From the NCBI RefSeq assembly GCF_003334815.1, contig NZ_QOWO01000040.1: a DNA stretch of 33,548 nt. One strand, written 5' to 3'. Below, one piece after another: positions 6,210 through 8,708 of this stretch (the stretch's first letter is position 1; each line of letters begins with the position of its first letter). Made by a program: the position numbers and the translations under genes. Under the pieces are notes generated by a model. That model ran no database searches, was not told where the DNA came from, and saw only the letters and a program-made list of their open reading frames with translations. Source of the DNA: Escherichia coli. Its GTDB lineage: Bacteria > Pseudomonadota > Gammaproteobacteria > Enterobacterales > Enterobacteriaceae.

Positions 6210-6629
6210 TTGCACCCGTAGCTCGCTGACGCTCACACGCGCAGTACAGCGCCCCGTCCTGTTGCGACGCACCAGGACGGCGTAAACTCGCTGGCGCTCG
6301 CGCTAACTGCGGCATTCTGCGGCGCAAATCAGCATAATCATGGCCTGCTGGTCAGTTGGGCTTTGCAGGGTGAAGGGATGGCCTGTGCACCCTGGTATGT
6401 TCGTCAGCGGCTGCGCCGCGCTTCGGGGCGATGTGGCTCCTGTGCTGCCCTGATATTTTCGTTCGCCCCTTCCATCCGCTTACGCGGATTAAAAAACGTG
6501 ATAACAATCACTTATCGAGTAAAAAAACGGGAGAAAACTTGCAAATACGGCTTAAAAGTCGTATTATTATTTCATCGAAAGGGGAATGGCCCCTCTCACA
6601 ATAGCCCAGCAGGGCAGGAGATTTAAAAA
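6210..6629 (+). repeat. About 420-bp direct repeat, copy 1: GC-rich hairpin-rich 5-prime half, AT-rich 3-prime half ending in RBS and start codon of the J-domain gene
   Basis: Identical to 8290-8708 except one extra A in the A-run before the ATG. Confidence 0.9.
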
Positions 6630-7145
6630 ATGAATATCCAGGAAGCATTAAATGTTTTTGGATTATCCGGCGAATTAACTGAAAAAGATATCAAAGCAGC
6701 ATACAGAAAAGCCGCTTTAAAATATCATCCAGATCGTAACCCGTTAGGGGCTGAACTGATGAAAGCGGTAAATGCAGCTTTTGATGTATTGATGGCAAAT
6801 ATTGATAAAATAAATCAGTTCCAGAGCACTGATGAACATGCACGATATAATTACGGTGATGACCTGGAAAAAGTATTAAACGTTCTTTCTGGTTTATCTG
6901 GTCTGGTATTTGAAGTGATAGGTAACTGGGTCTGGATTAGTGGAGAAACCATTACACATAAGGAAACTTTAAAAGAAATCGGGTGTAAATGGGCGGCAAA
7001 GAAAAAACAATGGTTTTATCGTCCAGACGAACATAAAAGTTACTGGAATCGTGAAGAACACACGATAGAAGAAATCCGCGCAAAATACGGTACAACCGGA
7101 CAGCGCAGGGCGACAGGGTGGCAACGCGTGGAAACCAGAGCGTAA
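6630..7145 (+). CDS. J-domain (DnaJ-like, HPD motif) protein with uncharacterised C-terminal domain
   Basis: N-terminal ...AYRKAALKYHPDRNP... is a canonical J-domain signature. Confidence 0.75.
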   Translation: MNIQEALNVFGLSGELTEKDIKAAYRKAALKYHPDRNPLGAELMKAVNAAFDVLMANIDKINQFQSTDEHARYNYGDDLEKVLNVLSGLSGLVFEVIGNWVWISGETITHKETLKEIGCKWAAKKKQWFYRPDEHKSYWNREEHTIEEIRAKYGTTGQRRATGWQRVETRA

Positions 7146-7152
7146 CCAGAAC

Positions 7153-7218
7153 GGGGGCGAGAAGCCCCCGATATTATAGCCAGCCCGTCTTTTGGGGCAT
7201 CGAACCCAAAAAGACGGG
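7153..7218 (+). terminator. Two tandem hairpins after the J-domain gene (gggggc gagaa gccccc; cccgtcttttgg ... ccaaaaagacggg)
   Basis: Read directly. Confidence 0.45.
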
Positions 7219-7249
7219 AACAGCAGCTACGTAGCAAAAAGGGAAACAG

Positions 7250-7792
7250 ATGAACTCTTTTTTTGAACAATATCACCCTGTCTTTGAAGTTGTCTGCCGT
7301 ATCCTGGGGAACGGCTGGCGCGTGAACAAACTTGATGATTGTTCGTCTCGTATAAAACTGACGTCACCGCAGTTTAAAAATTACTCTGTGCATATTCGGA
7401 TGGAAAAAGACCGGTTTTCTGTTGTGGGGAGTGTGGATAGTCGCTCCTGGCGTAGTCCGCATCATGTTTGCACGTTATCCAGAGAACGGAATCCCGTTGA
7501 TATTGCAGCCGATATCGAGCGAAAAATTCTGGTAAATGCTTCGCAGGAGGTGTTACAGGCGATTGAGTATGAGAAACACCAGGTGGAAAAAAAGGACGAA
7601 ATTCTGATCCTGAAAGGTATGTTATCGCAACTTGTCCAGCTTGAAAGCTGGTATGGGGCATTGACAGGCTTTAAAGCTGAAAACGGATTGAACGGTAAAG
7701 TCACCGAACAGGGCGACAGTTATGATTTACAGATTCGGGGCTTGAGTATAGATCAACTTGTTAAAATTACAGGGTATTTGAAACAGTTATGA
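7250..7792 (+). CDS. Hypothetical protein (180 aa)
   Basis: ORF track; RBS aaggg upstream; overlaps next gene by 4 nt. Confidence 0.55.
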   Translation: MNSFFEQYHPVFEVVCRILGNGWRVNKLDDCSSRIKLTSPQFKNYSVHIRMEKDRFSVVGSVDSRSWRSPHHVCTLSRERNPVDIAADIERKILVNASQEVLQAIEYEKHQVEKKDEILILKGMLSQLVQLESWYGALTGFKAENGLNGKVTEQGDSYDLQIRGLSIDQLVKITGYLKQL

Positions 7793-8040
7793 GAAAAAAT
7801 AAAGGTGATGTGACTTATTTTCTTGAAAAAGAAGGTGACAATTACAGGCTTACAAAAAGGATAAAAGCCAGAACAAATGTTAAAATCGGGAACAAAACTA
7901 CGAAAATTACATTGTATGATGCCGTACTGAATGAGAATGAATTACAACATATTGATTTTACGTGTGCCGGATTAAGGGAAGACGATGAGACGCCAGTTAA
8001 GAATTTAATTAAGGAGTTTATGTTAAATGAAACCCGATAA
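7789..8040 (+). CDS. Hypothetical protein (83 aa)
   Basis: ORF track; translational coupling (ATGA overlap). Confidence 0.5.
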   Translation: MRKNKGDVTYFLEKEGDNYRLTKRIKARTNVKIGNKTTKITLYDAVLNENELQHIDFTCAGLREDDETPVKNLIKEFMLNETR

Positions 8041-8254
8041 TACACCTGAAAATGTAAAAAAATTACGTTTAAAAGCAGGATTAACACAAAAGCAATGCAG
8101 TCATATTTATGGCGTTGGGCTAAGAACCTGGCAGAAAAAAGAGGAAGTTAATACTCAAAACAGTCAAAGTCTGTCACTGGTTGAGTTTGAGTTTCTTTTG
8201 TTACTTGCAGGAGAACATCCTGAATACGTGCTCTGCAAAAGGGAGTCAAAATAA
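8027..8254 (+). CDS. Small HTH (XRE-like) DNA-binding protein
   Basis: LRLKAGLTQKQCSHIYGVGLRTWQKKE resembles a helix-turn-helix. Confidence 0.5.
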   Translation: MKPDNTPENVKKLRLKAGLTQKQCSHIYGVGLRTWQKKEEVNTQNSQSLSLVEFEFLLLLAGEHPEYVLCKRESK

Positions 8255-8289
8255 AATGACCTGTGATGGTTTTATATTAGTACCTGGAG

Positions 8290-8708
8290 TTGCACCCGTA
8301 GCTCGCTGACGCTCACACGCGCAGTACAGCGCCCCGTCCTGTTGCGACGCACCAGGACGGCGTAAACTCGCTGGCGCTCGCGCTAACTGCGGCATTCTGC
8401 GGCGCAAATCAGCATAATCATGGCCTGCTGGTCAGTTGGGCTTTGCAGGGTGAAGGGATGGCCTGTGCACCCTGGTATGTTCGTCAGCGGCTGCGCCGCG
8501 CTTCGGGGCGATGTGGCTCCTGTGCTGCCCTGATATTTTCGTTCGCCCCTTCCATCCGCTTACGCGGATTAAAAAACGTGATAACAATCACTTATCGAGT
8601 AAAAAAACGGGAGAAAACTTGCAAATACGGCTTAAAAGTCGTATTATTATTTCATCGAAAGGGGAATGGCCCCTCTCACAATAGCCCAGCAGGGCAGGAG
8701 ATTTAAAA
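8290..8708 (+). repeat. About 420-bp direct repeat, copy 2, fused to the start codon of the 90-aa gene
   Basis: Identical to 6210-6629 apart from A-run length. Confidence 0.9.

Follow-up and report, generated by a model that had tools for sequence, protein, structure and literature searches.

The 33,548-nt stretch of Escherichia coli DNA considered here (contig NZ_QOWO01000040.1 of assembly GCF_003334815.1; hereafter the window) carries two direct repeats on the + strand, copy 1 at 6210..6629 and copy 2 at 8290..8708, each running up to the ATG of a different gene. Judged by profile homology, these repeats are the IncX4 version, and a distant homologue, of the conserved upstream repeats (CUPs) known from the leading regions of IncN plasmids. 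Each copy is built from a GC-rich module, comprising a core stem-loop and a segment termed module B, followed by a promoter module.

The repeat pair and the genes it precedes

Over 420 nt, segments 6210-6629 and 8290-8709 agree at every base and need no gap, the first mismatch being at 6630/8710; because so long an exact repeat occurs within 33.5 kb, a chance origin is excluded. The copies lie 2,080 nt apart, and their homology is bounded by 6209/8289 to the left and by the ATG to the right. They differ solely by one A in the run between the ribosome-binding site (RBS), AGGAG at 6617-6621 (copy 1) and 8697-8701 (copy 2), and the start codon, copy 1 having six A including the A of the ATG at 6630, and copy 2 five at 8709. 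Measured per 50 nt, G+C content is 54-72% over the first ~290 nt of the repeat and 36-50% over the last ~130 nt, against 40.6% for the window. Most of this had been anticipated by an original prediction made from the letters alone, which described ~420-bp direct repeats with a single-A difference in the final A-run, a shared RBS and start codon, a GC-rich 5' half, unrelated downstream genes, and an inverted repeat, CCGTCCTG...CAGGACGG, that lies at 6254-6261/6273-6280. All of these were borne out, and the view of the repeats as a duplicated expression cassette is likewise supported.

Copy 1 precedes an operon (6630..8254, + strand) that begins with a J-domain protein of 171 amino acids (6630-7145) and continues with open reading frames of 180 (7250-7792) and 83 (7789-8040) codons. 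The last gene, at 8027-8254, encodes a 75-amino-acid Xre-type helix-turn-helix (HTH) protein, recognised by HTH family matches, which is the candidate repressor of both copies. This gene order is kept in IncX3, X5, X6 and IncI2 plasmids. Copy 2 precedes a 90-amino-acid gene without family match (8709-8981, + strand). Directly after that gene, at 8982-9020, stands a terminator-like hairpin, AACGGGGC-ATTT-GCCCCGTT, with a T-run, and the copy 2 transcription unit may therefore be a single gene. Across the family at least 21 unrelated protein families, ArdA among them, are joined to the element at their ATG, which makes the cassette a portable expression unit.

The surrounding DNA is an IncX4-type backbone with ParA, Rep, DDP1 (11058-11561), a MobP1 relaxase (11565-12794), a VirB-type transfer system, TopB and H-NS, and the closest database match of the window is a 34-kb conjugative E. 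coli plasmid. Upstream of ddp1, sequence inspection located a candidate nick site of the origin of transfer (oriT), 5'-CTATCCTG/C-3' at 10966-10958 on the minus strand (the slash marks the nick), which fits the MOBP consensus, YATCCTG/Y. An inverted repeat lies beside it (GACAATC 10967-10973 / GATTGTC 11000-11006), and the candidate oriT as a whole (10958-11006) has a central palindrome, TCAAATGTTAACATTTGA. This nick candidate identifies the minus strand as the one transferred, with the DNA to its left, the leading region, being the first to arrive in the recipient. Copy 2 is 2.2 kb and copy 1 4.3 kb from the nick, and the + strand genes from 6630 to 10695 have the transferred strand as their template, which is also the case in F and R46. 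The nick candidate on the minus strand, with DDP1 and the relaxase immediately to the right, supports the earlier placement of the repeats in a conjugative leading region.

Kinship with IncN repeats, distribution and concerted evolution

CUPs were reportedly described in 1997 by Delver and Belogurov (J Mol Biol 271:13). They are conserved regions, >400 bp long, found where leading-region operons of pKM101/R46 have their 5' ends, and they contain a promoter and an ArdK-binding site (PMC5371602, PMC6289460, PMC6294495), and recombination between them has been documented in IncN and IncN2 plasmids (PMC3490853, PMC5371602). When the window repeat was compared with the R46 CUPs upstream of ccgAI, ardA and ccgD, nhmmer returned E=1e-7 for the single sequence and 5e-14 for a seven-sequence profile, with an alignment that covers element positions 23-395 and agrees in its orientation to the genes. 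A family hidden Markov model (HMM) that includes IncN-type members scores the R46 CUPs at E=1e-43 to 1e-47. In R46 the repeats sit upstream of ccgAI, ardA, ccgD and ardB. In the joint alignment the shared blocks begin on the left with CCCGTA and run to CCTTCCAT, together with a hairpin and A-run before the promoter. This kinship had been missed in the first reading of the sequence, and by these scores the IncN CUP is the closest known relative of the window element; a report of CUPs outside IncN, or of the core motif in print, was not found in the searchable literature. A fifth CUP-like copy, with core and module B and without the promoter module, was also noted in R46 (L003) at 32820-33090, adjoining the repA iterons upstream of the resolvase gene and oriented opposite to the leading-region CUPs; the same fragment occurs in IncR mosaic plasmids.

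By megablast the repeat was found in 1,142 plasmid records at 2,612 places, usually as two copies per IncX4 plasmid and three per IncI2 plasmid, with further versions in IncX3, X5, X6 and hybrid plasmids; another 85 loci came from metagenomes scanned with a two-block pattern. The original prediction had allowed that the duplication might be an artefact found in this molecule only. The pair recurs in hundreds of independent plasmid records, and it is a real and, in its distribution, ordinary feature of the whole family. A set of 128 copies fell into 52 clusters at 95% identity. Copies from the same plasmid are 88-99% alike, compared with 63-94% identity to the window copy, and because copies are alike within a plasmid and diverged between plasmids, they evolve in concert. 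The two copies share only 88% identity in this plasmid's nearest relative. As judged from these divergences, the exact identity of the window copies is the outcome of recent gene conversion, not of recent duplication.

A 17-mer core scan of genome contigs returned almost only chance matches in high-GC genomes. The one true copy, a full-length IncI2-like version on a 668-nt contig of Haemophilus sputorum CCUG 13788 (L041), belongs to a Pasteurellaceae assembly and may be contamination or an unrecognised plasmid fragment, and single-copy matches in IncR and Klebsiella were set aside since they look like backbone fragments in mosaic plasmids. An Rfam scan of 5,000-10,000 gave no relevant family. 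An integron attC-like site was rejected, as the invariant boxes CGCAGT/ACTGCG and AGCGC/GCGCT are not RYYYAAC/GTTRRRY; no recombinase or integrase gene is present in the window.

A conserved stem-loop, most likely of the transferred strand

The first part of the GC-rich module (6210-6340) contains a stem-loop at 6240..6311 in copy 1 and, in identical sequence at an offset of +2080, at 8320..8391 in copy 2. It is best formed on the minus, transferred strand and consists of three helices. Helix A (CGCAGT 6240-6245 / ACTGCG 6306-6311; 6 bp) is invariant, helix B (6248-6252/6300-6304; 5 bp) has one covarying pair, and in helix C (6254-6261/6273-6280; 8 bp) all eight pairs covary. The fold was derived as a consensus from 48 cluster representatives, and folding of each strand, which had been proposed with the original prediction, gave the same single structure. 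Among 32 distinct transferred-strand sequences 97.8% of the paired cells are complementary, compared with 87.8% in shuffles (none of 500 as high) and 25-49% with slid partners. Compensatory change was observed in nine pairs of the core stem-loop, and in some lineages the sequence of helix C has been replaced entirely with pairing kept (CCGTCCTG/CAGGACGG, CCAGCCC/GGGCTGG, CAGGGGC/GCCCCTG). The core is also 86% identical between IncX4 and IncX6, compared with 53-67% for the neighbouring protein genes.

Two features bear on the form in which the core is selected. The spacing between its invariant half-sites varies across the family, and neither this nor the turnover of helix C would be tolerated by a duplex protein site; the selected form is thus a folded single strand. 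As to which strand, the minus has 36 G.T wobbles as against 3 for the plus, a ratio that amounts to ~7 versus 1 independent events among related sequences. One position is a transferred-strand G.T wobble in 25 of the 48 representatives, in both orientations, and in the IncI2 version the fold of the transferred strand is favoured over that of the complement by 6 kcal/mol. The folded strand under selection is therefore, on this comparative evidence, most likely the transferred strand. Some further candidates were dropped. Other lineages do not retain the long-range pairing, CGCTGACG/CGTCAGCG, by which the minimum-energy fold of the window copy is closed. A small RNA from the minus strand was rejected for want of a promoter-like site and a terminator, and coding potential of the GC-rich part because family indels are not multiples of three. 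For positions 130-290 there is no family-wide consensus structure; only local hairpins covary.

Module B resembles segments downstream of replication origins

Module B, a candidate priming signal on the minus strand, occupies 6340..6500 in copy 1 and, with identical sequence, 8420..8580 in copy 2. It contains the conserved motif GGCTTTGCAGGG (6359-6370), a CAG followed by the hairpin GCGGC-TGC-GCCGC (6405-6419), the conserved block CCTTCCAT, and a hairpin TCCGC-TTAC-GCGGA with an A-run after it (6475-6488). A family HMM profile search located module B on its own downstream of repA in three replicons, with E values from 1e-10 to 1e-13 overall: R100 at 90,370-90,514 (E=1.3e-11; 701-845 nt past the repA stop), an IncI2 plasmid (L007) at 1726-1884 (697-855 nt past the stop), and an IncFII replicon (L002) at 10224-10378 (704-858 nt past the stop). 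Placed by the DnaA box of oriR (L223, position 4846), the R100 match falls 340-480 nt beyond the 188-bp origin. Leading-strand synthesis of R1 reportedly starts (Masai and Arai 1989; Bernander et al. 1992) at the G site, a primase-dependent, G4-type single-strand initiation (ssi) signal ~400 bp downstream of oriR, and Nomura et al. 1991 reportedly surveyed ssi signals.

The layout of these segments was compared with that of the phage G4 origin. On the leading-strand template strand of R100 a hairpin, CCGGC-GTAA-GCCGG, is followed by TACTG 399 nt from the origin end, and a hairpin with TACTG stands at the aligned place in the IncX6, F_H66 and R100 versions. At its mapped primer start, G4 has CGGCGAAAGCCG...CTACTG, that is, hairpin I and CTACTG. 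The transferred strand of the window has the hairpin GCGGC-GCA-GCCGC and then (C)TG, so that it reads GCCGC-TG. Also on this strand, an invariant GTACTGCG stands 3' of helix C, CCCTGCAAAGCC resembles G4 CTACTGCAAAGCC, and the most conserved block, GGCTTWGCAGGG, reads CCCTGCWAAGCC, which can likewise be compared with CTACTGCAAAGCC in G4. In the alignment with R100 the primase template strand corresponds to the transferred strand of the window, and extension would run toward the promoter. A factor-Y motif, AAGCGG, in hairpin E of the window copy (transferred strand) was regarded as coincidence, as it is not conserved in the IncI2 or IncN versions. The original prediction had offered a single-strand initiation element as one possibility; this has gained indirect support, in that the covarying stem-loop fits the transferred strand and module B is homologous to oriR-downstream segments of R100, IncFII and IncI2.

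At 140-260 nt from the nick candidate there is a partial, inverted module B (minus strand, 10701..10821; nhmmer E=2e-7 and 1.3e-9), and inverted copies are found at the same place in IncX6, X5 and X3. The inverted copy may serve priming on the retained strand, in donor replacement synthesis, or be part of an R6K-like alpha/beta origin.

A separate observation concerns positions 5955-6016, between the Rep iterons and copy 1, where the segment TTCCGCTTCCTCGCTCACT...GTTCGGCTGCGGCGAGCGGTATC closely resembles the n'-pas (primosome-assembly) region downstream of the ColE1/pBR322 origin. An 81-nt query from this segment matched at least 5,000 plasmid records at 90-100% identity, many of them mobilizable ColE1-type plasmids of 2-10 kb. 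By this resemblance a second kind of priming signal would lie directly upstream of the cassette.

The promoter module and a candidate repressor

The AT-richer end of the element (about 6500-6629 in copy 1) looks like an ordinary double-strand promoter with a predicted operator. In copy 1 the promoter scan identified a sigma-70-type promoter, TTGCAA-N17-TATTAT, at 6539..6567 (+ strand), and the putative operator is a palindrome in its spacer, AATACGGCT-TAAA-AGTCGTATT at 6544-6565, of which the symmetry is kept and the sequence is lineage-specific; promoter and operator of copy 2 lie at 8619..8647. The 5' untranslated region (UTR) of copy 1 (6580..6621) carries a hairpin, AGGGG-AATGG-CCCCT at 6580-6594, ahead of the RBS, and is repeated in copy 2 at +2080. 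Across 92 copies the promoter keeps a 17-nt spacer, a TATTAT -10 and a TTGnnA -35, and the 5'UTR hairpin covaries across the family (GGGG/CCCC, GGGG/CTCC, GAGG/CCTC). Four palindrome types were distinguished by lineage, ATACGRC/GTCGTAT, ATACATC/GATGTAT, ATAGGTC/GACCTAT and ATACCGC/GCGGTAT; the type is the same in all copies of one plasmid and different between lineages.

In IncX3, X4, X5, X6 and IncI2 an Xre-type HTH protein of 73-80 amino acids is the last gene of the J-domain operon, and variants of its recognition helix map one-to-one onto the palindrome types at >40 loci. Homologues of ArdK or ArdR were not detected by BLASTP and tblastn in the window or in the IncI2 or IncX loci. The 75-amino-acid HTH protein most likely represses both copies, to judge from this correspondence, as a functional analogue and not a homologue of ArdK. 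A mosaic between IncX4 and IncI2 was also noted: when 6630-8254 of the window is aligned with L007 5895-7546, identity is 99% for the J-domain gene, 95% for the 180-codon frame, and 67% for both the HTH gene and the promoter modules. These values indicate that cargo genes were exchanged recently between plasmid groups and that the regulator was not, and the contrast between the J-domain gene and the two 67% segments suggests that regulator and operator travel together.

The promoter module and the GC-rich module do not always occur as one. The J-domain genes of IncX5 and IncX6 are preceded by a promoter module of ~100 nt only, and the IncI2 copy before the J-domain gene (L007 5637-5897) has an internal deletion removing positions ~52-208; from the separate occurrence of the modules in IncI2, IncX5 and IncX6 it follows that the two are separable. 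A short partial copy also precedes hicA in the IncI2 plasmid (L007 8729-8820).

A proposed composite of initiation signal and promoter, and the alternatives

The repeat, its distribution, the CUP homology, the module anatomy, the covariation and the oriR-distal homology are established, and the explanation that best accounts for them, held here with somewhat better than even confidence, is a composite in which a single-strand initiation signal is fused to a repressor-controlled duplex promoter, with the copies homogenised by gene conversion. The 3' ~125 nt would supply the duplex sigma-70 promoter, spacer operator, 5'UTR hairpin and strong RBS, and so express whatever gene is joined at the ATG. 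A plasmid repressor, most likely the 75-amino-acid Xre-type HTH protein, would hold this promoter down in the donor, and in a recipient lacking the repressor both operons would fire transiently, a zygotic induction such as has been proposed for the IncN CUP regulon with ArdK. The GC-rich 5' ~290 nt would act on the transferred strand (the minus strand of the window and template of the genes), where its conserved hairpins, formed on DNA coated with single-strand-binding protein, would recruit priming, probably of the primase (G4/G-site) type. The primer would be extended toward the promoter and genes, so that the cassette becomes duplex, as the promoter would need to work, and transcription would continue until the HTH repressor accumulates and closes a negative feedback loop.

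Several observations weigh against this composite. The correspondence of HTH variant and operator is confounded by common ancestry. Of the structural evidence, single-sequence folding z-scores are modest (-1.9 to -3.9), the strand asymmetry of wobbles reduces to few independent events, and helix A, which never varies, offers no proof by covariation and would sequester one candidate CTG. The CTG beside the module B hairpin is common and not universal in the family. The G4 origin gave no nhmmer match to the element or to R100, and pairwise scores fall within the shuffle range; since the similarity is not significant, the resemblance to G4 is one of layout only. That R100 90,370-90,514 is the G site is presumed from the distance of ~400 bp to oriR, and the inverted oriT-proximal copies need a separate explanation. 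Finally, promoter activity, repressor identity, priming and the priming enzyme are all deduced from sequence.

Of the alternatives, the one that fares best, though it appears unlikely, is that the GC-rich module acts only as duplex DNA, as an extended regulatory region providing protein sites or an insulator against read-through or H-NS. Long CUP regions have been treated as possible ArdK/ArdR binding sites (PMC6294495), module B occurs in both orientations, and several blocks are conserved rather than covarying (GGCTTWGCAGGG, CCTTCCAT). A duplex function, however, fits poorly with a helix C whose pairing survives complete change of sequence, with the variable distance between half-sites and with a wobble asymmetry that is strand-specific; moreover, IncX4 and IncI2 are without ArdK or ArdR, and module B adjoins replication origins where no promoter follows it.

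It is distinctly improbable that the repeat, beyond its promoter, has no function of its own, is homogenised by gene conversion and serves only as a portable stretch of homology by which leading-region operons are shuffled. Concerted evolution within plasmids, the recombination of CUPs documented in IncN/IncN2 (PMC3490853, PMC5371602) and the mosaic nature of the IncX4/IncI2 region would all be expected under such a role. Gene conversion nevertheless leaves unexplained why the repeat is better conserved than coding genes across IncN, IncX3-6 and IncI2, and it accounts for neither the compensatory changes nor the strand-specific wobbles.

A role of the GC-rich stem-loop in stalling or delaying conversion of the transferred strand deserves slightly less credence still. 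A GC-rich stem-loop does lie on the transferred strand upstream of leading genes, and in F, ssp2 stalls conversion at its stem (bioRxiv 10.64898/2026.01.09.698686); but delayed conversion would postpone use of the adjacent downstream duplex-type promoter, there is no homology to the F region, and the homologous segment at IncFII and IncI2 origins is the reported start, not stop, of leading-strand synthesis.

Least probable of all, and very doubtful, is an Frpo-like single-strand promoter, an option raised in the original prediction, in which a hairpin mimics a duplex -35/-10 and RNA polymerase transcribes before complementary-strand synthesis: the leading-region site, the transferred-strand template, GC-rich structure like that of F Frpo1-3 (58-69% GC; bioRxiv 10.1101/2025.04.03.647016) and folding z-scores of -3.3 and -3.9 agree with it, but neither family HMM has an nhmmer match at E<=1 in F 45,000-70,000, where Frpo1/2 and the promoters of classes 2 and 3 are situated (PMC12672017, PMC9849209), the GC-rich module has no promoter-like hexamers on either strand or on its hairpin arms, the conserved fold is a 72-nt three-helix stem-loop whose 3' arm of ~24 nt is too short for a -35 and -10, the core motif is absent from the candidate promoters of single-stranded DNA that the supplements of Samuel et al. 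2024 list, and the element has its own conserved duplex-type promoter, with -35 and -10 in an unpaired AT-rich segment without complementary arm. Direct alignment likewise revealed no similarity to the F intergenic regions upstream of ssb, of the ardB/klcA-like antirestriction gene and of the open reading frame at F 53,784. This part of the original prediction is thus unsupported.

The composite of initiation signal and repressible promoter can be extended, tentatively and with rather less than even confidence, to CUP-type repeats at large. They would be "prime-and-express" cassettes, in which a repressible promoter is joined to a primase-type ssi signal that came from the site where the plasmid's own replicon starts its leading strand. 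IncN, IncX and IncI2 plasmids, of which those examined have VirB-type transfer systems, would by this means speed local conversion to duplex, and so express leading genes early, instead of using single-strand promoters of the F/IncI1 type, and the inverted signal at oriT would prime the retained strand.

Other features of the window

The Rep protein is accompanied by five 22-bp iterons (5478-5609). Repeats of ~25 nt (...TGTGACATACA...) lie on both sides of the ParA gene (1385-2032), at 1230-1376, 2028-2074 and 33261-33307, and are probably partition (centromere-like) sites. Elsewhere in the leading region, a promoter that matches the consensus perfectly, TTGACA-N17-TATAAT (12/12), is found on the + strand at 10046-10074, just after a bidirectional terminator-like hairpin at 10018-10038.

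Significance

The colistin-resistance gene mcr-1 is carried mainly by IncX4 and IncI2 plasmids, and carbapenemase genes occur on IncN and IncX3. Studies of early expression have lately dealt with the single-strand promoters of F and IncI1, which are absent from these plasmids, and published work states of the >400-bp CUP repeats that their function has "not been studied in detail". The element is of a known but little-studied kind, the CUP; what is new is the plasmid setting, the different regulator and a structure that has now become visible. The kinship extends the 1997 finding in IncN to several major families of resistance plasmids, and the anatomy of the family is now defined as a transferred-strand stem-loop, a G-site-like module and a promoter with lineage-specific operator. 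If priming proves true, there would be a second, mechanistically different timing of establishment genes, in which complementary-strand synthesis is tied to expression, and the stem-loop and HTH repressor would be targets for blocking plasmid establishment.

Comparison with known systems

The window element is most like the IncN CUPs. Both are direct repeats of ~400 bp in the leading region, oriented with the genes and each ending at the start codon of a different operon, and both have an RBS together with a promoter and operator, which in the window element are predicted, and are prone to recombine between copies. Overall identity is only ~63%, however, and the IncX4, IncI2 and IncX3/5/6 plasmids considered here have MOBP relaxases whereas IncN has MOBF. 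In place of ArdK/ArdR there is another operator palindrome with a candidate Xre-type repressor, and the cargo is a J-domain operon and small open reading frames as opposed to ardA, ardB and ccg genes.

As to the G site of R1/R100, module B is homologous to the R100 segment presumed to be that site. The R100 segment has two GC hairpins, directly 3' of one of which TACTG stands on the strand that would be the leading-strand template, and the equivalent strand in the window is the transferred strand. The window segment differs in lying in front of leading-region promoters, and inverted by oriT, instead of beside a vegetative origin, in being joined to an extra 130-nt core stem-loop that is absent from R100, and in a start triplet that is not conserved in every lineage.

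Repressor-based zygotic induction, as in the RP4 kor regulon (PMC7314908) and p576 (PMC6294495), would be alike in its repression in the donor and free promoter in a recipient without repressor, and in a repressor that lies within its own regulon and exerts negative feedback. Unlike those systems, the promoter here belongs to a mobile cassette present in repeated copies, in which a structured single-strand module is coupled to it.

The single-strand promoters of the Frpo/ssi type, which form classes 1-3 and for which Masai and Arai 1997 is reportedly a source, are known from F and IncI1 (PMC9849209, PMC12672017). These too are repeated, GC-rich, structured non-coding elements upstream of leading-region operons. 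In both cases the transferred strand is the template of the operons, and the presumed purpose is that the recipient expresses them early and transiently. There is no homology between them, and the window element is without a long hairpin that rebuilds a -35 and -10. In the model favoured here, transcription from the CUP-like cassette would appear to need duplex DNA, and it would be shut off by a repressor and not by duplex conversion.

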